A stretch of 52,349 bases of DNA from the IMG/VR virus record IMGVR_UViG_3300025018_000018, positions 1-52,349 of that record; one strand, 5' to 3'. This document shows, piece by piece, positions 19,215 through 44,914 of this stretch (position 1 is the first letter of the stretch; the number at the start of each line of letters is the position of its first letter). A program made the position numbers and the translations under genes. The notes beneath the pieces are model-generated. The model had not been told where the DNA came from and made no database searches. It saw only the letters and a list, made by a program, of their open reading frames with translations. The stretch is from a virus (taxonomy: Duplodnaviria; Caudoviricetes).

Positions 19215-19991
19215 TTATCCTCCAATTAACAATTTAATGAGATCGTATCCACCAATGCCCAGAGTTGCCCCACCTGCTAGAAGAAGCAACCATTTAAGCG
19301 TTGGCGTATTAAACGCATACAGAGCAACCTTCATCATTCGTTCCCGACGTGCAGCAGCTTCGGCATAAATCCGTTGCTGCTCACGCTGCCAGCGTTCCAT
19401 CATCTCTAGCCGCTGGTTGGATTGGGCAACACTATTCGCTTGTGTCGCCTTGATGGTCTTTAATTCATCAAAGATACCCGCCGCCCCACCCTCCCGACCA
19501 AACAAAGCATCCGTTATGCGATCCAGCTTGGATGTGATCCCTGCCATTGATGAAGCATGAAGTTTGATGTCCCGTGTATGTTCATTCAGATCGTCTTGGA
19601 TTTCTTTAATCGCATCATCTCGCGCACCAATTAGCGCATTCTGCGCCTGGATGGTGGCAGTGATTGGTGCGAGTTCTACTTTGATGTCCGACCTAAAATC
19701 CTTTAACATCCCGCGAACCGAGTCCATGAATGAATTGGTCAATTCGCTTACATGGCGGGTAAATTCATTCTGCACCTCACCCACACGGGCATTCACCAGA
19801 TTGGCGGTATGCTGCCTTTCATCCTTAATTGCATCTGAAATGGCGCGTGGCAGTTTATCATCAATCGCACGTTGAACCTCATCGTGAATCACAAGCCGAA
19901 GCTCATCCATAGGATTGCTAGGTGGTATCTCTGGCACATCATCAAGAGGTAGCCTATTCAATTCTTCGATGGGTGTTGTGTCGTCGCTCAT
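19215..19991 (-). CDS. Coiled-coil protein with C-terminal TM segment (lysis-module position)
   Basis: Heptad-rich body; WLLLLAGGATLGIGG tail. Confidence 0.7.
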   Translation of the reverse strand: MSDDTTPIEELNRLPLDDVPEIPPSNPMDELRLVIHDEVQRAIDDKLPRAISDAIKDERQHTANLVNARVGEVQNEFTRHVSELTNSFMDSVRGMLKDFRSDIKVELAPITATIQAQNALIGARDDAIKEIQDDLNEHTRDIKLHASSMAGITSKLDRITDALFGREGGAAGIFDELKTIKATQANSVAQSNQRLEMMERWQREQQRIYAEAAARRERMMKVALYAFNTPTLKWLLLLAGGATLGIGGYDLIKLLIGG

Positions 19992-20005: not shown

Positions 20006-20030
20006 AGAACTTTTGTTCTATATTATACCA
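20006..20030 (-). promoter_or_regulatory. Extended -10 promoter followed by a perfect LexA-type box
   Basis: Minus strand reads TGGTATAAT-AT-AGAAC-AAAA-GTTCT. Confidence 0.75.
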
Positions 20031-27869: not shown

Positions 27870-28201
27870 TAAATCCCTCCCCCACTATTAACCCATTCAG
27901 CCCAGCGGTAGTTTGTCCTCAACCATTGAATCGCTTCATACATGCTTGTATCGAGTAATTCATATAAACGTGGCACCATGACATATGCCTCAAGTGTATT
28001 ACCCGCTTGGTCAATCCAATAATCAATCTCCAGTAGATACTCTATGTCATATCCTGGCAGGTTGAAATCTGGCGTTGTAACTGCCAACTTTTTGCCTTCG
28101 CGTGTGCGATTGATTGCCTTTGTCCGCTGACGCACATGATCCTGTATCCGCGTTAATACAGGTCGTGCTACTTGTTGTCGCCAGCGGAGTCGGCTTCCCC
28201 C
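27869..28201 (-). CDS. Tail assembly chaperone T segment (reached by -1 frameshift)
   Basis: The -1 frame is open from the G-GGG-GAA site through ORF 27869..28135. Confidence 0.7.
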   Translation of the reverse strand, partial: GGSRLRWRQQVARPVLTRIQDHVRQRTKAINRTREGKKLAVTTPDFNLPGYDIEYLLEIDYWIDQAGNTLEAYVMVPRLYELLDTSMYEAIQWLRTNYRWAEWVNSGGGI

Positions 28202-28590
28202 TCAGATGGTTCCACGTCTGCTGTCGGCGGCGGCGTGACAACATGCTCAAACATTACGCGCAGTTCATCAAGCAATGACTCTGGAATGTATTGATAAAAT
28301 TGCAACCAACGCTCTGATAGAGCGTATGGGGCAGTCTGCATATAGTTGCAAAATGCCTGCCATTCCTCAGTTGCATCTTTCCCACAACTCACAACACTAT
28401 GGAAGTGGCTATCAAAGCCAAAGCATGTCAACTGTGTATCGTGCTGCCACTCTCCAACATTATCACCCCAGATCGTTGTGATCGACTGGAAGTTCATCAG
28501 TCTGCGTGGTGTTCGATGGGGTATCATTCTCAGGGTCACGTTCCCGTCCGCTGATGTCACCTGCTTTGTGAGTAGTTGCAGATAGTCCAC
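28168..28590 (-). CDS. Tail assembly chaperone G
   Basis: Between tail tube and tape measure; slippery GGGGGAA at 28201-28195. Confidence 0.75.
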   Translation of the reverse strand: MDYLQLLTKQVTSADGNVTLRMIPHRTPRRLMNFQSITTIWGDNVGEWQHDTQLTCFGFDSHFHSVVSCGKDATEEWQAFCNYMQTAPYALSERWLQFYQYIPESLLDELRVMFEHVVTPPPTADVEPSEGEADSAGDNK

Positions 28591-28771
28591 GTTTCACATC
28601 CTTAATTGCTTTTTTGAGGTCAAAATCTTTTGGTGGAAATGCGTCAATGATGATGTAATACCCATCCCCGATGTTGCTCCGTGTGATATTCCCATCGTGC
28701 AGTACGGGTTGTCCGCAGATGGTTTCAGTTGGAGCGAACTCACCGTGCTTGCCAACGCGCTTATCCATCAT
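28463..28771 (-). CDS. Hypothetical protein
   Basis: ORF after the tail tube gene, overlapping the chaperone 5' end. Confidence 0.55.
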   Translation of the reverse strand: MMDKRVGKHGEFAPTETICGQPVLHDGNITRSNIGDGYYIIIDAFPPKDFDLKKAIKDVKRGLSATTHKAGDISGRERDPENDTPSNTTQTDELPVDHNDLG

Positions 28772-28778
28772 GCACCCC

Positions 28779-29645
28779 CTACGGGACGACATATTCTGTG
28801 CCGTATAGCAGCACCACGATGTCAGCCGCGCCAGTAGCGGTGCGTGTCACCACGCCTGTACTGGTATTGATGCCTGTCACGCTGCCCTGCGTGCCATCCG
28901 TGGTAATGTTGTTGTCCGCCGTACCCGTTGCGGTAGACAATGCTGGGCGATACGGCAGGGTGAATGTCCCTGCGCTGCCGTCGTCAACATAGGTTGCTAA
29001 ATGAAGTGGGTAAGCCCCCTGCCAGCGTTCCACCATCGCCACGCTTCCGAACGAGCCTGTTCCCATGCCCGAGAACAATTCGCCGGACGCGCTGCGTGTG
29101 CTTTCGCTTGGGATAAGCACGTAGCTCAGGTTATTAGGATTGGACACGTCACCAGTCACGTTGCCCGCGCCGCCTTCGGCTGTCTGCCGAATGACCGCGT
29201 TAGGATAGATGCGTGTTTCCCACTTATCCTTCCCGGTTGTTATATCGTGCGTTCTGATGTTGAACCCCACGATAAACTTCGGTGTGCTTGCCTGGCGCGG
29301 GTTATCGGTTGTGATGGTGTGCGTGGTGTTGGTGGATGTATCCACCGTTGTCTTGGTGATGTAGGCGTAGAACGTCGGGTCAAACGTGTTGAGCGTAAAT
29401 GGCACATTGCCCTTGACCGCGCCTGCGGCGTATGTTGTGCCTTTGCGCGTGCCGCCATTGTCGAATGTAACCGCCGCCTGGGTGTCCGCGTCCGGGGCGA
29501 ACTCTACCGCGTTGTTCAGGACATACGCGCCGTAGACTGTGCCATTCACGGGACTGTCTGGTGTGGTTAACGCGCCCATCGGGTAGCCGTTGCTGTCCCG
29601 GAACGCAATCCACATCTGTGCTTGAAGAACATATCCGTAAGCCAT
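28779..29645 (-). CDS. Major tail (tube) protein
   Basis: Thr/Gly-rich beta protein at the canonical position. Confidence 0.8.
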   Translation of the reverse strand: MAYGYVLQAQMWIAFRDSNGYPMGALTTPDSPVNGTVYGAYVLNNAVEFAPDADTQAAVTFDNGGTRKGTTYAAGAVKGNVPFTLNTFDPTFYAYITKTTVDTSTNTTHTITTDNPRQASTPKFIVGFNIRTHDITTGKDKWETRIYPNAVIRQTAEGGAGNVTGDVSNPNNLSYVLIPSESTRSASGELFSGMGTGSFGSVAMVERWQGAYPLHLATYVDDGSAGTFTLPYRPALSTATGTADNNITTDGTQGSVTGINTSTGVVTRTATGAADIVVLLYGTEYVVP

Positions 29646-32696: not shown

Positions 32697-35156
32697 TTAC
32701 ACGCCGATATTATACAGAATTGAGGCATCATCGTTGGATTGCGCGGTAAACGCAAACCGCACGGTTACCGTCAGTTGCCATGAGTCGTAGTAGCTCAGAT
32801 AATCGAAATTCGCAGCGATGCGACGACGATACCCGATATACCAAGACGGACGATGGACGATCAGCAGGCGACCCCGTTCAACAGCATTACCGCCACTGGT
32901 GATCTTGCCATCAGCATCCGCCAGATCAAGCTCATTCGAGATGAACACGGGAATGCCATCAATCACACCAATCTGTCCGTTCATGTTGGTGGCGCGATTG
33001 CCAGCCTTGTCCATTGTCAAGAATTCGTTCATGCCCAGGAGCTTTGCCTCAACCTCCGGATGGGTGATGATTGCTAGGTCAGATACATTCTGCTTGCTGC
33101 GATCCAGAAGGAACCGTGCCTTGCGGATGGCTGCCAGCGTTGGGGCTGCCCCGCTATGATCAGAGGCATTGGCACTCACTGTCACCAATGCGTGCTTAAT
33201 CAGCCCATTCATCGCAAAATACTTGCTAGGGGCAGCCGCGCTACCACCATCAAGGTTGATGTTGTTGCTTGTAGCGGTGTCGCCATTCAGCAGCACATTA
33301 TCAATGCTATTGAGGATGGCACGTTCAGCTTGTTGACGATACAACGGGATTGCGCCAGCAACCGCATCCTCTTCCAATTCGGATGCAATACCCACACGCA
33401 ATGCCAGCTTCTTAGCGGTCAATGTCACCTTTGCTGACCCAACCTTGCTATCTGGAATTGCAGAACCTGAACCAGATAATAACAACTGGTCTTCATTGGT
33501 TGTTTCGCTAACAAAGTATACAGAAGGATCGGTGCCTTCAACGGGCAGTTCATACGGATTGGTGGGCATTTCCATCACATTGAACAATGGGGCAACCACG
33601 TTATCCCGCCGCGCCTTACGCCAAATTTCTTCGCGCCAAGCAGTCGGGACATGCTCATCACCATAGCCGGACTGCGTGGGGTGGTTCAGTTCATTCGCCT
33701 TGACCGCGCCGGACTTAATTGCCCGTGCCAGATGGGTGAGTTGCGGATCGTAGGATTTACCCGCGCTCTGCGGATCGTCTACTTTATGAGCAAATGCCTG
33801 CCAGAAGCCATCCCCAAACGAGATGCCTTTACCGGATGACTGTTGCGCTTTGTTGAGTTCCGCTGCATAGCTAAAATCCTCAACATCCCAATGGTCGTAC
33901 CGCCGATCAACCATGCCAGTTACGCTTGTACCATTCCCGCTTTTCACGTTCGGGCGGCTGTATTCGGCGGGCTGCTGCTTTTCCCATGCTTCACGCTGAG
34001 AGGAGAACGCACCCTTGAGCGCGGATTCTGCCTGCTTCTGCGTCTCAGACCATTTCTTGAACAGCGCAAAGGTCTTCTGAGAAGCCTTCTCCGCCAGTTC
34101 TTCATAGTCCATCTTGTCGGGGTCTTCCGGCATGTTCTGCTTCATGTCGTCCACGACTTCTTCAGTCATGGCAGTAGCATCCGCCGGGGCAACACCGAGT
34201 TCCTTGAGTTGGTCGGCAACGATCTTGCTAATCATCGCCTGTAATTCTTCGGGTGTCATTTCTGCACTCTCCATCATTGTTGATTTGCTTACGTTAACCG
34301 CGTCTGTCGTCTCATCCTGCCCTGCTTCTATAGGCTCTTGGACAGCCTCTCTAAGCAGCAACTCATCAAACGATTTCTGCGAGTGGATTTTGGTTTCAAA
34401 TGGCATTGCAGGCGCAACGGTCAGCGACCCTTCCACCAATGCCCATTCCGCGATACGCCCATCGGGCAGTACCTTGACGCTGTGCGGGATTGCGCCGGAC
34501 GACCACCCAAGCCGACCATCCTTGACCAGCTTCATAATGGCTTCCGCATAGCGATTGCTCATGTCAATCTCCGCTTCGACCCATAGCCCGATGTCGTCCT
34601 GCTTGGCAGAGACGAATGTCCCGACGTTGTGGAACTTCGTACCTTCCTTGAAGCCGTGATTGTAGAGCGTCTTCAGCTTCAGCAAGCCATCTGGTATGTC
34701 GGTAAAGAACTCCGTTTCAGGCGTAAAATACTCACCTTCCAGATCTTTCTTGCTGGCATCGGAATACACCACCAGATACCCGCCCACGCGGTTGCCGCCT
34801 ACTGCCTTGACCGCGCTGCCGAAGTAATATTGTTTGGCATCCATCGCTACACTCTTTTCATCCGTGTTAATCCAGTCATAGCACGCCCAGAACCCTGGGC
34901 TGAACGGGTCTTTTTTCTCATCGCAACTGTGCCGCGTGATAAATGCCTCACGGCTCTCAGGGACATCGCGTTCCATCTGCTCGCCGGGTTGCCCGTAGTG
35001 GACGGTACGTTCATCATCCTGGTAGCGGACGGTGCGTTCGTACTTCTTATCATCCCGGCTGGATGGTCTGCGGCGGGTCGCCTGACACCGCACGCCGTTC
35101 AATTGGTAATCAAAAAAGTCTGCCTTGATAGCAGACTTATCTTGTGTATCGCTCAT
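32697..35156 (-). CDS. Fused HK97-type prohead protease / scaffold / major capsid protein with extra N-terminal domain
   Basis: Protease motifs DLEGEYFT, LYNHG, GLWVEAEI, GWSSGAIP; capsid motifs VTLTAKKLA, IASELEEDA, LLNGD, GQIGVIDGIPV. Confidence 0.92.
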   Translation of the reverse strand: MSDTQDKSAIKADFFDYQLNGVRCQATRRRPSSRDDKKYERTVRYQDDERTVHYGQPGEQMERDVPESREAFITRHSCDEKKDPFSPGFWACYDWINTDEKSVAMDAKQYYFGSAVKAVGGNRVGGYLVVYSDASKKDLEGEYFTPETEFFTDIPDGLLKLKTLYNHGFKEGTKFHNVGTFVSAKQDDIGLWVEAEIDMSNRYAEAIMKLVKDGRLGWSSGAIPHSVKVLPDGRIAEWALVEGSLTVAPAMPFETKIHSQKSFDELLLREAVQEPIEAGQDETTDAVNVSKSTMMESAEMTPEELQAMISKIVADQLKELGVAPADATAMTEEVVDDMKQNMPEDPDKMDYEELAEKASQKTFALFKKWSETQKQAESALKGAFSSQREAWEKQQPAEYSRPNVKSGNGTSVTGMVDRRYDHWDVEDFSYAAELNKAQQSSGKGISFGDGFWQAFAHKVDDPQSAGKSYDPQLTHLARAIKSGAVKANELNHPTQSGYGDEHVPTAWREEIWRKARRDNVVAPLFNVMEMPTNPYELPVEGTDPSVYFVSETTNEDQLLLSGSGSAIPDSKVGSAKVTLTAKKLALRVGIASELEEDAVAGAIPLYRQQAERAILNSIDNVLLNGDTATSNNINLDGGSAAAPSKYFAMNGLIKHALVTVSANASDHSGAAPTLAAIRKARFLLDRSKQNVSDLAIITHPEVEAKLLGMNEFLTMDKAGNRATNMNGQIGVIDGIPVFISNELDLADADGKITSGGNAVERGRLLIVHRPSWYIGYRRRIAANFDYLSYYDSWQLTVTVRFAFTAQSNDDASILYNIGV

Positions 35157-35165
35157 AGTCAACCC

Positions 35166-39295: not shown

Positions 39296-39595
39296 TCAAA
39301 TGTGCTGTTCAAACACCATCACCTTCTCATCGCCTACCGTATCCAGCATGGATTGATACTTCTCAATCTCATCCGGCGTTAGCTTTCGCTCATCAACTTG
39401 GGCATACATGCGTTGTAGATCACCCCGCCATTCCACCATCACCACCCGGAAGCGTACCTTATGCCAGTCACACTGCACACCTGTCGGTGTATTCATCTTG
39501 GGATACACCACATCATAGACCGTGCCAATGGGCAATTCTGAGGATGAACGCCCATCCGTGTGCAGATAGAACAATCCATACCTATACAGAATCAT
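39296..39595 (-). CDS. Hypothetical protein
   Basis: ATGA-coupled to the upstream ORF. Confidence 0.65.
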   Translation of the reverse strand: MILYRYGLFYLHTDGRSSSELPIGTVYDVVYPKMNTPTGVQCDWHKVRFRVVMVEWRGDLQRMYAQVDERKLTPDEIEKYQSMLDTVGDEKVMVFEQHI

Positions 39596-40023
39596 CGCGC
39601 GGATGCTGTAGTATATACAGGTGATAAACTCTGCGTATAGGTATACGCTACGCGACTTGGTGTAGGTTTAGGCTGGATCAATCGCAAATCAGCCTCATCG
39701 AACGCTTTGGGATCGTCTGCAATCTCCGAACAAATACCTTCCACCACCAGATCAATTTCCTCAAGAATCGACATCACACGATACATAGATAGGCTATAGT
39801 TGGCTGAGATTGCAGCGGCACGTTGGCGAAGTGGAACGCCCCGTCGTTTCAAGTCCTCATTAGCACGATCAATACGACGTTCTAGCGGCGATAATGCCGC
39901 GCGAAACGTGTTTGACATCCGCGCACGATGATTCCAGTGGCGCAGTCCCCCGCGCCACTCGGCAGGCTTATAAAACAGGTTCTTATCGTATGGCTCGTAG
40001 CTTTCTGCCTCTGGTGTCATCAT
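39592..40023 (-). CDS. Hypothetical protein, possibly DNA-binding
   Basis: Own promoter with LexA-type box; RQRAAAISANYSLSMYRVMSIL resembles an HTH. Confidence 0.65.
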   Translation of the reverse strand: MMTPEAESYEPYDKNLFYKPAEWRGGLRHWNHRARMSNTFRAALSPLERRIDRANEDLKRRGVPLRQRAAAISANYSLSMYRVMSILEEIDLVVEGICSEIADDPKAFDEADLRLIQPKPTPSRVAYTYTQSLSPVYTTASAR

Positions 40024-40038
40024 GTGTAATTTATCCTA

Positions 40039-40060
40039 AAACATTTGTTCTATTATACCA
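40039..40060 (-). promoter_or_regulatory. Extended -10 promoter plus LexA-type box
   Basis: Minus strand reads TGGTATAAT-AGAAC-AAAT-GTTT. Confidence 0.7.
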
Positions 40061-40062
40061 CA

Positions 40063-40096
40063 CAAACAAAACGGACAGGCTGTACACACCTGTCCG
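40063..40096 (-). terminator. Terminator downstream of the tRNA-like gene
   Basis: CGGACAGG/CCTGTCCG stem followed on - by TTTTGTTTG. Confidence 0.7.
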
Positions 40097-40138
40097 CTTC
40101 GCACTGCTATTTTTTTGACTCACATATCCAAAAAAGTG

Positions 40139-40212
40139 CCCCCAGGGCAGGAGTCGAACCTGCTACCTCAGCGTTGATTTAACGCTGCGCTCTACCGTTG
40201 AGCTACCCGTGG
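40139..40212 (-). tRNA. tRNA-like gene with non-canonical 9-nt anticodon loop (isotype undetermined)
   Basis: CCACGGG-TA-GCTC-AACGGTA-GAGC-G-CAGCG-TTAAATCAA-CGCTG-AGGTA-GCAGG-TTCGACT-CCTGC-CCTGGGG-G; no encoded CCA. Confidence 0.8.
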
Positions 40213-40303
40213 TTGTGTCCGCTGGTTTTTGAATACGCCACAAGATGGATTACGAACGAAAGAACGATCCAGCGGACAGTGACTATACTCTAACACAGAG
40301 AAT

Positions 40304-40317
40304 AGCACGTATGTTCT
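40304..40317. promoter_or_regulatory. LexA-type box upstream of the tRNA-like transcript
   Basis: AGCAC-GTAT-GTTCT (1 mismatch); TATAGT -10 on - at 40287-40282. Confidence 0.55.
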
Positions 40318-40323
40318 ATATTG

Positions 40324-40887
40324 TCAAATATCATCCTCATCCATCATTGCAGGTAAGATGATACTCTCCCATGCAATCTTCTCTCCACCACTGGTTACAT
40401 CCGTCCGGTCCGTCGGCTCACCAAACGTCAACCGCGCTTCCTTCATGATGACACCAAAGCCCAGCATAAACTCCTTGAAGCCCTTCAGGTCGATCTTATC
40501 GGGTTCATGTTTAGCCTGCTCACCCATTGTATTGATAATGCGCCCTGCGATGCCTTGAAGGGCTTGCAGGCTCGTCCACATAATCTCTCGTGCCTTTGCC
40601 ACCTCATTCGCACGTCGGGCATCTGCTTCCTTTACCCTTAACTGACGCTCGTGTTCATCCCAGGCGTGCGCCCGTGTTTCCCATTGGTAATCAATGATAC
40701 GCTGAGTCCATGACCCAGGCGTGGATTTTGGCTGCTTAAACTCATGCCCCTGTTGCGCTGCCCTATCCCGCTTCTCTTGGGTATACACGCCCAGGAAGGA
40801 ACGATTAATCCCCATCAGGCGATAGCGTTCAAACCGATCCCACCATTTGTTATCTTCCTCTGGAAGACGTTCCCATAACTCAGCCAT
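40324..40887 (-). CDS. terS: Terminase small subunit
   Basis: WERLPEE...RFERYRLMG...WETRAHAWD family pattern; DVTSGGEKI C-terminal motif. Confidence 0.75.
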   Translation of the reverse strand: MAELWERLPEEDNKWWDRFERYRLMGINRSFLGVYTQEKRDRAAQQGHEFKQPKSTPGSWTQRIIDYQWETRAHAWDEHERQLRVKEADARRANEVAKAREIMWTSLQALQGIAGRIINTMGEQAKHEPDKIDLKGFKEFMLGFGVIMKEARLTFGEPTDRTDVTSGGEKIAWESIILPAMMDEDDI

Positions 40888-40958
40888 TGTCCACCCTCTT
40901 GACATCTAACCCCTCATCCACCATGCGCTGAAGGATGAAAAATCTAATTCGTTTTATA

Positions 40959-40981
40959 TAACATTTGTTCTAATTATACAG
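40959..40981 (-). promoter_or_regulatory. -10 element plus LexA-type box upstream of terS
   Basis: Minus strand reads TATAAT-T-AGAAC-AAAT-GTTA. Confidence 0.65.
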
Positions 40982-41061
40982 TAAAATGATAACAAAGTTC
41001 TCACGCATGAGTCGTATTCGCGCCAACACGCGCCAATTTCCGCTAAACCAGAGGAAATATA

Positions 41062-42042
41062 ATGACCATAACCATTTACACCGCACAAATGGGCATCAGT
41101 GATCCTGATGCCATAGACATAACCGTGAAAGGCGATAAAGTTGGCGCATGTCTCGCCCCCACCTGGGAGCTAGTCGGCGGGCATAAGGCAGCCGCCGGAC
41201 ATGAGAAGTTCGTTGGGAAGTATCCACCACTGACGGACGAAGAATACACCGAAGCATATAAAGAGTTGCTTAGGGAACGCTATCGCAAAGATAAACAGCC
41301 TTTCCTTGATCTTCTGTCACGTGAACGGCTGGTCTTAAAATGCTACTGCAATTCCAATCCAGACACGTTTTGCCATCGCCATATTGCAAAAGATGTTTTG
41401 AGGCGAATTGCCCACTTTCACGGCATCCAGACGCGCAACGGCGGGGAGTTGCTCAATTACGATTACAGCAAGCGGGATGAAGCGATCATCCAAGCCTGGG
41501 CAATCGCACAGAAACCGCCTGCAACCGTTTGCTATCTGGATACAGAGACAACCGGAGCCGATCCAGAATCAGATGAACCCGTGACCATCGGAATTATCGA
41601 CGGAAATGGCGACGTGCTAATGAACGTTCGTATCAAACCATCTGTACCGATCCATCCCGACGCGCAGGCGGTACACGGTATATCAAATGAGATGGTTGCC
41701 CACTGCCGCACGTTTAGAGACATTGCAGATGAATTAAACGCCATTGTCGCTAAACGCCTAGTGGTAGTCTATAACGCAAAATTCGACATGAATCTGCTCA
41801 TCAATACCGCACTTCGCCAAAACGTATTTTTAACCATCCCCACGTTTACATGCGCTCAGGACATATTCTCAAAATATAATGGGCATTATAGCGACTACCA
41901 TCAAACATTTATCCCAAGAAAATTGACCGAAGCGGCAAAACAGCTTGGGATAAAAGCCCAAAATGCCCACGACGCGGTGGGTGATATTCAAATGACACGC
42001 CTACTAATCCACGCCCTCGCCTCTCAATTCCAACCAGCATAA
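41062..42042 (+). CDS. DUF488-like domain fused to DEDDh (DnaQ-like) 3'-5' exonuclease
   Basis: N-terminus LAPTWELV...YTEAY...LVLKCYC...FCHRHI; C-terminus YLDTETTG, VHGI, YNAKFD, AHDAVGD. Confidence 0.85.
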   Translation: MTITIYTAQMGISDPDAIDITVKGDKVGACLAPTWELVGGHKAAAGHEKFVGKYPPLTDEEYTEAYKELLRERYRKDKQPFLDLLSRERLVLKCYCNSNPDTFCHRHIAKDVLRRIAHFHGIQTRNGGELLNYDYSKRDEAIIQAWAIAQKPPATVCYLDTETTGADPESDEPVTIGIIDGNGDVLMNVRIKPSVPIHPDAQAVHGISNEMVAHCRTFRDIADELNAIVAKRLVVVYNAKFDMNLLINTALRQNVFLTIPTFTCAQDIFSKYNGHYSDYHQTFIPRKLTEAAKQLGIKAQNAHDAVGDIQMTRLLIHALASQFQPA

Positions 42043-43266: not shown

Positions 43267-44001
43267 CTACAACTCATCCCGCAACTTACGCAATTCCTCG
43301 ATCTGATCGTCAATCAACTGCCGCACCTGCGCTTTCTCATGCGCCTGCAATTGCTTACTTTTCCGTGTGAAATTGCGATATTTCAGCCGACTTTTAATCA
43401 AAAACATCTCAAACTTGCCCGCTTCCCCCGGTAGGGCAGGGGGCTTTCCATGTTTTAGGTAATATTGAAACTTATCGACGCTGGTAAGATTTAGATCAAT
43501 GGCAGCTTGGATCAATTTTCGCTGATCATCCTCAGAATATGGAGCTAGCAACTTATGGTGAGAGAAAGTCAATTTATCGGTGCGCACCGATAAATTGACT
43601 TGTCGTGCTACATATGCCATATCATTAATTGTGGTCACGCTGTATCCGGTTAAGTCCGCCAGCTCATCGTATTTCTTGCCCCAAAAATCTGCACCATAAA
43701 GGGCAAGGTCTGCAATGATCCACTGAATAGCGCGGTTGACTTGCTCCGTGTGGCGGAACATCGTCAGCCACTCGTCCTCATCAAGCCCTTCCAGTACTTG
43801 CACAATGCCAACGTCGCTCAAGACAAAATGTCCGATGTGTGTATGCCCGTTTTCATCTGTACGGAATGGAGCAATACCATTTTTGCGCGTGGGCAGCTTC
43901 AACCCAAACGCTTGGGTAATATCCGGCACGATGGCAGATGATCTATTATCCCCATTCTCCAACGCATCCATAAATTTACTGCGGCTGTCGTCTTTTGCCA
44001 T
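43267..44001 (-). CDS. LmbU-family-like HTH DNA-binding protein (candidate ParA partner)
   Basis: QWIIADLALYG...YDELADLTGYSVTTINDMAYVARQV...KLTFSHHKLLA matches the LmbU pattern; TAATG-coupled to parA. Confidence 0.7.
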   Translation of the reverse strand: MAKDDSRSKFMDALENGDNRSSAIVPDITQAFGLKLPTRKNGIAPFRTDENGHTHIGHFVLSDVGIVQVLEGLDEDEWLTMFRHTEQVNRAIQWIIADLALYGADFWGKKYDELADLTGYSVTTINDMAYVARQVNLSVRTDKLTFSHHKLLAPYSEDDQRKLIQAAIDLNLTSVDKFQYYLKHGKPPALPGEAGKFEMFLIKSRLKYRNFTRKSKQLQAHEKAQVRQLIDDQIEELRKLRDEL

Positions 44002-44816
44002 TAGGCTACCTCACCCGCTTGAATTTTTTCCAGGATGTTATCAACGATTGGTTGTAGCTCGGCTACTGCCACCTTCGCTTGACGACGCTCAGAATAATCT
44101 TTCGTGTTGGCACGCTTATAGATGCTACGCTGTAATTGTGATGCCTGCACCCATGCGGTTAATGAACGCATAGGATTGAATACATTTAAGTGATCATACT
44201 TACCACACAGCCACCCATAATTGACCTGTTGCACCTTCTGGCTTGCGTCAAACTGATTTGGCACGATGCCTAGAATTTTGGCTGTTGATAGCCCTTGAGA
44301 TTCTGCCTGTTTACCAATCTGCTGCAAGTACCCCATTGTTGTTCCCAAACTTCGCACGCTGTCCGGCTGTGTTAGCGTTGGTAGCAAAATATAATCAGAT
44401 GCAAAATACAATCCAGCATGGATGTTCGTCAGTCCTGGCGATGTGTCCACCAGAATAACATCAAATGCTGGACGCAGATTATCCAAATGTTCCATCAAAA
44501 GAGAAGGCGTGTCAGTATGTGATTCAACTTGAATTTGACCATCACTGGATGGCAATAACGCCATCACCGCATTTTTGTCACCTGTGAACTCATGATCCAC
44601 TGGCAGCAATACGTCCTGATAATCCGCGCCATGCAGCATCATTGCCAGTAGTCCATCTGTGCGCGGATGACGTAAACCAGTAGTAGCATTACCCTGCCCA
44701 TCTGCGTCGATGACCAACACTCTAGCACCTGCACGTGCCAGCCCTGCTCCCAAATTAATTGTAATCGTTGTTTTACCAACGCCACCTTTACGCCCCATCA
44801 CTGAAATAACTTTCAT
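44001..44816 (-). CDS. parA: ParA/Soj family partition ATPase
   Basis: KGGVGKTT deviant Walker A; VLVIDADGQGNAT; DVILVDTSP; ILGIVPN. Confidence 0.95.
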   Translation of the reverse strand: MKVISVMGRKGGVGKTTITINLGAGLARAGARVLVIDADGQGNATTGLRHPRTDGLLAMMLHGADYQDVLLPVDHEFTGDKNAVMALLPSSDGQIQVESHTDTPSLLMEHLDNLRPAFDVILVDTSPGLTNIHAGLYFASDYILLPTLTQPDSVRSLGTTMGYLQQIGKQAESQGLSTAKILGIVPNQFDASQKVQQVNYGWLCGKYDHLNVFNPMRSLTAWVQASQLQRSIYKRANTKDYSERRQAKVAVAELQPIVDNILEKIQAGEVA

Positions 44817-44880
44817 GAGTCTTGTCTCCCTTTGTTTTGGTATATAATATGATCGAAACAGGCTGGTCTCCCTGCCTGGC

Positions 44881-44914
44881 AAAACCCGCCCTCGGATCAG
44901 GGCGTTTTTTGTTT
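44881..44914. terminator. Hairpin terminator separating par genes from the upstream operon
   Basis: CGCCCT-CGGATC-AGGGCG flanked by A- and T-runs. Confidence 0.6.

Follow-up and report, generated by a model that had tools for sequence, protein, structure and literature searches.

A solitary tRNA-shaped gene with a lengthened anticodon arm in the packaging module of a metagenomic tailed phage

Introduction

Natural tRNAs with non-standard anticodon arms are rare, and they are raw material for frameshift decoding and for tRNA mimics. Here we describe a tRNA-shaped gene of 74 nucleotides (nt) with a lengthened anticodon arm, which lies at 40212..40139 on the minus strand of the virus record IMGVR_UViG_3300025018_000018 (Duplodnaviria; Caudoviricetes). 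The complete virus record, a metagenome assembly of 52,349 bases with direct terminal repeats, was analysed as a whole and is called the window below. The gene is best explained, with about even confidence, as a degenerate, non-decoding descendant of a phage tRNA-Ile gene and not as a purpose-built recoding tRNA.

Several tRNAs with extra bases in the anticodon loop have been described. Atkins et al. (PMC5009743) name as exceptions a yeast mitochondrial tRNA, "tRNAs in a phage" and a sponge mitochondrial tRNA-Gly. The mitochondrial tRNA-Gly of Iphiteon panacea has a 9-nt loop, which matches the codon of a +1 shift (PMC5009743). Nine-base loops are also reported for the tRNA-Leu of S. pombe, the tRNA-Met of Astasia longa and a suppressor tRNA of Euplotes (Wang et al., 2016, PMC4759687). 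Studies in E. coli have included mutant tRNAs whose loops have 9 or 10 nt (PMC5009743), and mutants of tRNA-Arg with 7-, 8- and 9-membered loops are known (Tuohy et al., 1992, as cited in PMC4759687 and PMC5009743). Libraries of 8- or 9-base loops yield quadruplet decoders (PMC11231383).

The frameshift-suppressor tRNAs, both those of the 8-nt sufB2/SufJ type and the tRNA-Arg mutants, resemble the phage gene in having extra anticodon-arm nucleotides in an otherwise normal cloverleaf. However, they are mutants of charged tRNAs with known shift sites, whereas the phage gene has altered identity elements, extra bases with predicted pairing and no shift site that was found in the window. The natural 9-nt-loop tRNAs have, like the phage gene, nine formally unpaired loop bases in a presumed wild-type gene, but they are organellar or eukaryotic, and that of I. 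panacea has four loop bases matching its shift codon, while no such needed match was found in the window. The phage tRNAs named among the exceptions are reportedly those of the cluster M mycobacteriophages of Pope et al. (2014).

Other phage RNAs depart from the tRNA consensus in different ways. Mutations in the anticodon loops of phage tRNAs have been proposed to evade host tRNA nucleases (van den Berg et al., 2023, PMC10264068). The loop of the phage gene likewise departs from the host-type consensus, but that model keeps the 7-nt loop and the anticodon, whereas arm length and anticodon are both changed here; the text of that paper makes no mention of insertion, loop size, pseudo, non-canonical or decoy. 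RNA C/D of phage T4 and the tRNA-like stable RNAs of T5 have a tRNA-derived fold without a usable anticodon. These RNAs are larger, lie in tRNA clusters and are conserved, whereas the phage gene has 74 nt, is solitary and is without a homologue found in the searches made. A literature search, which left subscription journals mostly uncovered, brought up no phage tRNA described as having a 9-nt loop or a 6-bp anticodon stem like that of the phage gene. Odd-looped phage tRNA genes and look-alikes are a known kind, and the phage gene adds to it a solitary member with a modest defect.

Anatomy of the Gene

The gene was recognized by sequence reading, by ARAGORN and by Rfam. It matches RF00005 with 49.5 bits (E 1.1e-07, gathering cut-off 29) over model positions 1-71 of 71, and it is the sole Rfam match at the gathering threshold in the 52,349-base window. 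ARAGORN, which the earlier sequence-only reading of this DNA had suggested running, called it as the single gene in the window with a score of 107.5 and labelled it tRNA-Ile(AAU). A search of the whole record also gave one tRNA match, the same gene. The sequence-only reading had described canonical D and T arms at 40139..40212 and had not stated a strand; both arms are present, on the minus strand.

The 74 nt are made up of the acceptor stem, the D arm, the lengthened anticodon arm, a 5-nt variable loop (AGGUA), the T arm and a discriminator G. The D arm (GCUC-AACGGUA-GAGC, followed by G26) and the T arm (GCAGG-UUCGACU-CCUGC) are canonical. The acceptor stem is CCACGGG/CCUGGGG and includes a G5.U68 wobble and an A3.G70 mismatch, whose two bases lie at 40210 and 40142. 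The mismatch had been noticed in the sequence-only reading; it is marked "v" (non-standard) in the Rfam alignment, and it is an A-U pair in both of the tRNA-Ile relatives described below. The discriminator G73 is followed by CAC and a run of six U. The tail is therefore GCAC and an encoded CCA is absent, as the sequence-only reading had also observed. A canonical elongator has a fully paired 7-bp acceptor stem and a 3' CCA that is either encoded or added; the phage gene has the mismatch and does not encode the CCA.

The core of the molecule is largely preserved. By the established position rules for tRNA core nucleotides, all 11 elbow and core nucleotides are present (U8, A14, G18, G19, A21, G53, U54, U55, C56, A58 and C61), and in the pair table 20 of the 21 stem pairs are intact. 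Positions 15:48 are A.A and not a paired R15-Y48. Taken alone, the tRNA does not fold unusually well for its composition (z -1.54; 14 of 200 shuffles as good or better). The sequence-only reading had held that all arm stems still pair and that this argues against random decay. The pairing stands for 20 of 21 pairs, but without homologues such pairing leaves room for recent decay.

The anticodon arm, CAGCG-UUAAAUCAA-CGCUG, occupies 40169..40187 on the minus strand, with its nine loop bases at 40182..40174 according to the segment table and the fold prediction, and it is two bases longer than a canonical tRNA arm. It can be read in three registers. In the Rfam register there is a 5-bp stem with a 9-nt loop, and the alignment has 6 loop bases where the model has 4, in agreement with the 9-nt loop of the sequence-only reading. 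In the ARAGORN register the stem is shifted by one pair, which gives 6 stacked pairs, the 7-nt loop UAAAUCA and the call of tRNA-Ile(AAU). The minimum-free-energy fold has a 7-bp anticodon stem with a 5-nt AAAUC loop, which was the alternative offered by the sequence-only reading and is the one that the energy model favours. Nine loop bases are thus formally unpaired, yet the two flanking pairs U31-A39 and U32-A38 are predicted with probabilities of 0.99 and 0.88, and each added U-A pair lowers the computed energy by 1.3-1.7 kcal/mol. Because the extra bases are predicted to pair, the tip of the arm would be a 7- or 5-base loop on a helix of 6-7 bp.

Ordinary anticodon loops carry U33 and a purine at position 37. 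No register of the phage arm, whether with a 9-, 7- or 5-nt loop, has both, and the ARAGORN register has A33 and C37. The phage arm is therefore not that of a canonical elongator, with a 5-bp stem, a 7-nt loop, U33 and purine 37, and the earlier view that the gene is tRNA-shaped but not an ordinary decoder is borne out. An antisense target for the loop was also considered and ruled out in the window, where the loop complement TTGATTTAA is found nowhere else than in the tRNA gene itself.

Kinship With Viral tRNA-Ile Genes

Relatives were sought with exact-pattern scans, which return exact matches only and from which the window's own record was excluded, and with blastn. The pattern of the acceptor 5' strand plus D arm matched five viral loci in IMG/VR and had 0 matches in 185,579 species genomes. 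Three of the five loci hold one identical tRNA-Ile(GAT) (L255, L257 and L258), and the other two are not recognizable tRNAs. Among unforced blastn matches, the highest identity (79.4%) was to the tRNA-Ile(GAT) of Erythrobacter phage XM05 (PV416404.1, about 1650-1725), which has the same CCACGGG start.

The acceptor 5' strand, U8-A9, both D-stem strands and G26 are common to the phage gene, the XM05 tRNA and the IMG/VR form. The phage gene also agrees with the tRNA-Ile relatives in the T arm, at the GG/CC stem ends and the start of the loop, it has the G5.U68 wobble in common with the IMG/VR form, and in the ARAGORN register its loop bases A35, U36 and A38 match those of the relatives. In that register three of the five anticodon-stem pairs are common to the phage gene and XM05, and in the Rfam register none. 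The stems of the two relatives have changed by pairs: T-stem pair 50:64 is C-G, U-A and G-C across the three sequences, and the T and anticodon stems of both relatives differ from each other and from the phage gene by pair changes. The "Ile" call of ARAGORN, for which the central triplet is read as AAU, agrees with the acceptor kinship. Likeness over the body of the molecule is mixed, with 76% to a phage tRNA-Phe and 79% to tRNA-Ile, and since G73 fits neither Phe nor Ile, it is only the acceptor and D-arm match that carries the kinship. On these likenesses, the phage gene probably descends from a viral tRNA-Ile(GAU) lineage.

The phage gene differs from this lineage in features by which the relatives are working isoleucine tRNAs. 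The tRNA-Ile relatives have a 5-bp anticodon stem, the 7-nt loop CCGAUAA, the A3-U70 pair, A73 and an encoded CCA, and their positions 15:48 are G-C in both. The phage gene has two more arm bases, the loop UUAAAUCAA, A3.G70, G73, CAC and A.A at 15:48. The simplest option, which the sequence-only reading had overlooked, is that the gene looks like a diverged copy of the viral tRNA-Ile(GAU) lineage in which the loop CCGAUAA, A73, the encoded CCA and the A3-U70 and G15-C48 pairs have been lost. The proposed course is as follows. A gene derived from tRNA-Ile(GAU) would form its own small transcription unit inside the packaging module, and its RNA would probably be transcribed and trimmed by RNase P and RNase Z. 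The L-shaped core would still fold. The loss of decoding would follow from the longer arm, the lack of U33 and R37 and the changes to the A73, A3-U70 and CCA of the lineage, and the copy is probably decaying.

The lineage itself has an unusual feature. Its loop, CCGAUAA, has C33 and not the near-universal U33, and this loop is identical in two forms with paired stem changes (L252 64-139; L255 148-226, L257 and L258). Relatives with C33 may fit the nuclease-evasion model. The XM05 tRNA-Ile(GAT) is unannotated in its GenBank record (PV416404.1; L252 64-139). In addition, two IMG/VR contigs of 37 and 292 kb (L256 201-330 and L259 100-227) have the same tRNA 5' half behind a TATAAT box, with a continuation that neither ARAGORN nor reading resolves as a tRNA; judged by sequence, these may be interrupted or intron-bearing tRNA genes.

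Absence of a Recoding Need in the Genome

The sequence-only reading had listed a recoding tRNA among its options, and this proposal finds no support in a survey of the genes of the window. Open reading frames (ORFs) of up to 1140 amino acids (aa) are open in code 11 and the ORF map is continuous. Across 73 ORFs the stops are TAA in 30, TGA in 24 and TAG in 19, with no sign that a stop codon is reassigned. An opal suppressor, for which there is a UCA in the loop, was rejected: TGA ends 24 of the 73 ORFs, including the small terminase gene (TerS), ORF143, ORF99, TerL and the portal gene, and the UCA is off centre. Reading of 4- or 5-base codons was rejected as well. A scan of 65 ORFs gave 472 in-frame words with complementarity to the loop; wherever the shifted frame is long, it belongs to an ordinary neighbour gene that overlaps. 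The commonest codon is GAT (662 of 14,615). A 3'-stacked AUC reading would suit this usage, but without U33 and with a wobble A34.

One site was considered separately. A tail-chaperone-like pair lies in window 28168-28792 on the minus strand, flanked by a putative gene for the tail tube and by a tape-measure-like gene of 629 aa. The G-like ORF runs from 28792 to 28463, and the T-like ORF lies in the +1 frame and not in the usual -1 frame; neither has a Pfam or PHROG family match. The G-like ORF ends in CUG GGG UGA U, and AUCA of the tRNA loop is complementary to UGAU. In form, the same end is like a classical site for a stop-stimulated +1 shift. It is conserved in one more closely related phage, a 51,106-base contig known from proteins alone, in which the tail proteins have 70% (G-like) and 79% (T-like) identity to those of the window.

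A +1 shift driven by the tRNA was nevertheless rejected for this pair, as chance alone would give about one 4-mer match across the 44 codons of the overlap window. In comparison with the 51-kb relative, the overlap has 2 of 13 changes in the T-like +1 frame and 6 of 13 in the G-like 0 frame. The T-like N-terminus MNFQSI.TIWGD is conserved, and the relative has the same MNFQ start with its own ATG. The better conservation of the +1 frame and the shared MNFQ start indicate that the T-like protein probably has its own start.

Searches for Related Genes and Arms

The lengthened arm was not found again. The exact 25-mer of the arm had 0 matches in other viruses. The same stem with any loop of 5-11 nt occurs at 6 viral and at least 119 genomic loci, and among the matches listed the recognizable tRNAs all have a 7-nt loop; the sole 8-base gap on this stem among the matches listed (L099) is not a tRNA by ARAGORN. 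The pattern of loop plus T arm gave 12 loci, and in none does a tRNA lie at the matching position. At the DNA level, the 4.3-kb region has no match among phage records.

Related phages were reached through TerL, for which there are 54 viral loci (identity up to 47%), 44 metagenomic loci (up to 49%) and 2 genomic loci (up to 43%); the nearest cellular match, 43% identical, is in a Gammaproteobacteria assembly. With default ARAGORN settings, tRNAs were called in 3 of the 54 viral loci, and none adjoins TerL as here. With relaxed settings, the 98 viral and metagenomic loci gave ordinary types or low-scoring calls, none at the equivalent place. The tRNA types at these loci were ordinary Arg, Thr, Met, Leu and Val by ARAGORN and Rfam. 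Ten related virus records searched whole have 0-2 tRNA matches each, at 21.6-64.3 bits, and all but the weakest (21.6) are above the 29-bit cut-off. Among the ARAGORN matches listed, these are of Thr, Arg and Met types, together with low-scoring calls. In the exact-pattern and relative searches made, the tRNA gene thus appears to be an orphan.

Recent capture of a host tRNA was tried as an origin and rejected. The 3' half of the gene has 1 match in genome contigs, which is not a tRNA by ARAGORN, and the 5' half has 0 matches; the search for host capture gave no match in E. coli genomes, and those in plasmids were weak. Among cellular sequences, the T arm plus acceptor 3' strand is matched exactly at one place only, on a contig of a Gemmatimonadaceae metagenome-assembled genome (L250 301-324), where ARAGORN calls no tRNA. 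The flanking pairing of CCCCCAGG...CCUGGGGG at this locus suggests the end of some other tRNA-like RNA.

Two further IMG/VR contigs of 10.6 and 5.2 kb carry tRNAs with a short variable arm that are called Leu(UAA) (L060 274-345, minus strand, and L061 284-355). They have the same D arm, anticodon stem and variable loop AGGUA as the phage gene and a different acceptor stem, a likeness that is partly forced by the search pattern. Their loops are GGUAACU and GUUAACU (G32, C37), and each has a metallophosphoesterase gene on one side and, on the other, a small gene with a match to phrog_474.

Genomic Setting and Expression Signals

The tRNA gene lies between TerS (40324-40905; phrog_6299, 3.2e-10) and the operon ORF143-ORF99-TerL-portal, all on the minus strand according to PHROG matches. 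The operon downstream comprises ORF143, ORF99, TerL (phrog_2, 8.7e-26), the portal gene (phrog_12, 7.2e-37) and a protease-capsid fusion. For ORF143 and ORF99, neither a Pfam or PHROG family nor an Atlas match was found. On a greedy map of 73 ORFs, no stretch of the genome without an ORF is longer than the one that houses the tRNA gene (40024 to 40323, 300 nt).

A sigma-70-like promoter-like site on the minus strand, TTGACA-17-TATTCT with TG ahead of the second hexamer, is found at 40299..40327; with 10 of 12 consensus matches it is the best of 5 sites in 39500-41100. Between its -35 and -10 boxes, at 40307..40319, lies the 13-nt motif ATAGAACATACGT, which is common to the promoter regions of the TerS, ORF143 and 19991 operons. 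Allowing up to 2 mismatches, this motif occurs 14 times where 4.6 occurrences are expected, a count that none of 100 shuffles attained. In the minus-strand promoters of TerS (40961-40973), ORF143 (40041-40053) and the gene starting at 19991 (20009-20021), the architecture is TGnTATAAT followed after 0-2 nt by (A)TAGAACAAA(T/A)GT. The shared motif is probably a phage-specific promoter or operator signal.

The leader is predicted to form a hairpin at 40216..40279 on the minus strand, with perfectly complementary 10-nt arms (40269-40278 and 40216-40225; inverted repeat I3) that are present in the fold of the whole 261-nt unit. This hairpin ends 3 nt upstream of the tRNA 5' end, and the leader has no Rfam match. 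The 261-nt unit folds with a z of -2.61, and 0 of 200 shuffles fold as well. Downstream, a minus-strand run of six U (40130..40135) begins three bases past the discriminator and is terminator-like together with the hairpin of T arm and acceptor. It is followed at 40063..40099 on the minus strand by a terminator-like hairpin, AAGCGGACAGG-9 nt-CCUGUCCGUUU and then a U-rich run (inverted repeat I2, with 11-nt arms that are 91% complementary and a 15-bp stem in the fold). The consensus scan overlooked this hairpin because its loop has 9 nt. The end of the unit is bounded by the next minus-strand promoter, TGGTATAAT followed by the same 13-nt motif, at 40041..40060 ahead of ORF143. With promoter-like, leader-hairpin and terminator-like signals, the tRNA gene looks like an autonomous unit, and from these signals we infer that it is probably transcribed.

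Two smaller features were observed in the unit. An 8-nt direct repeat, TGTCCGCT, stands on both sides of the tRNA gene (40091-40098 and 40216-40223); at 1 mismatch it has 16 matches in the window against 9.4 expected, and 4 of 100 shuffles equal that, so it is not striking. The leader 5' arm (40271-40279) is perfectly complementary over 9 nt to the terminator 5' arm, and judging by this complementarity an alternative leader-terminator pairing that would open the terminator is possible.

Weighing of the Explanations

Several observations weigh against a decaying tRNA-Ile copy. With 20 of 21 stem pairs and all elbow nucleotides intact, the gene shows little damage for one that is drifting, and its 49.5 bits are in line with the tRNAs of related phages, which score 29-64 bits. 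The strong promoter-like site with the motif of late-type operons, the terminator and the position in the largest non-coding gap of a tightly packed genome suggest that the phage has kept the unit. Read in the ARAGORN register, the two added bases make up a C-G pair that caps a stem with three of five pairs in common with XM05; such an extra pair is a compensated change, which is not as random decay predicts. The link to tRNA-Ile is a comparison of three sequences, one of which was found through a pattern that fixes 23 bases. The intact pairs, the kept signals, the large gap and the paired extra bases leave weight for other readings. One of these is that a non-decoding tRNA look-alike has been retained, either as a handle for RNase P and RNase Z, whose cuts would release or stabilize the leader hairpin or a read-through TerS transcript, or as a decoy for a host tRNA-binding enzyme or tRNA nuclease. 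This would account for the presence of an autonomous unit, complete with promoter-like and terminator signals, in the largest non-coding gap, for a core that is intact while identity elements are changed, and for a stable 7-bp helix predicted in the anticodon arm. The 10-bp hairpin 3 nt ahead of the tRNA 5' end would fit as well, since an RNase P cut there would leave a hairpin-protected 3' end. However, the exact-pattern and relative searches found no homologue with the odd arm, the leader is without an Rfam match, no partner gene was recognized, the neighbours ORF143 and ORF99 being without family, and an ordinary tRNA would do equally well as a processing handle. We regard this explanation as rather unlikely. 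The mimic or processing-tag role proposed in the sequence-only reading therefore gains from the promoter-like site and the leader hairpin, but no conserved arm was found and we rate it below decay.

A working tRNA with an expanded arm is doubtful to a like degree. It could read AUU through AAU on a 6-bp stem, read GAU through a 3'-stacked AUC, or shift frame on a 4- or 5-base codon, and in a variant it would be resistant to host anticodon nucleases. In its favour, the five loop bases stand between the canonical flanks UU...AA, the ARAGORN register preserves A35, U36 and A38 of the Ile relatives, no codon is commoner than GAT, and the promoter motif is common to structural operons. In E. coli mutants, nine-membered loops can take part in +1 frameshifting, and 9-nt loops are found in a few natural tRNAs (PMC5009743, PMC4759687). 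But no register has U33 with purine 37, the A73 of the Ile relatives has become G, positions 3:70 are A.G and the extra bases are predicted to pair. A wobble A34 is, moreover, unusual in bacteria. No gene of the continuous code-11 map needs recoding either; the 472 4/5-mer matches come to ordinary gene overlaps only, and the tail-chaperone-like pair points to its own start codon. The suggestion that the gene counters anticodon nucleases has a published counterpart in phage tRNAs, but the published model concerns substitutions in 7-nt loops and not longer arms (PMC10264068). A more specific form of the idea is that the lengthened arm has been selected: a charged tRNA whose anticodon arm has a 6-bp stem or a 9-nt loop would be co-expressed with the structural genes and either decode AUU or GAU unseen by a host anticodon nuclease or cause a low-level frameshift that is invisible to an ORF scan. 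This we consider improbable; if true, the gene would be a natural virus-encoded decoder with an expanded anticodon arm in bacteria. An ordinary tRNA with a two-base assembly or sequencing error in the loop is very improbable. The record is a metagenome assembly and there is an AAA run in the loop, but dropping any two adjacent of the five central bases gives AUC, AAC or AAA, all of which have a wobble A34 and none of which is the GAU of the relatives. G70, G73, the missing CCA and A15.A48 all lie outside the loop, and two-base errors are rare in short-read assemblies.

Each outcome would have its own meaning. If the gene is a decaying or repurposed copy of tRNA-Ile, it is a snapshot of how phage tRNA genes die or become look-alikes. 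Gene finders will label it tRNA-Ile(AAU), which is a warning for annotation. If instead the RNA is charged and used, it would be a natural expanded-arm decoder of a bacterial virus, with a bearing on genetic-code expansion and on the contest between phage tRNAs and host tRNA nucleases.

Other Features of the Genome

Two other genes of the window were observed in passing. A ParA-like partition ATPase is encoded at 44001-44882 on the minus strand (phrog_164, 2.7e-41; Pfam AAA_31/CbiA), and no integrase was found among the ORFs scanned with Pfam and PHROGs; by sequence, this combination hints at a plasmid-like prophage lifestyle. An 821-aa ORF at 32697-35162 on the minus strand has a match to phrog_10 (major head protein, 5.7e-17) and, N-terminally, one to phrog_80 (head maturation protease, 3.3e-07), and these matches suggest a fused protease-capsid gene.

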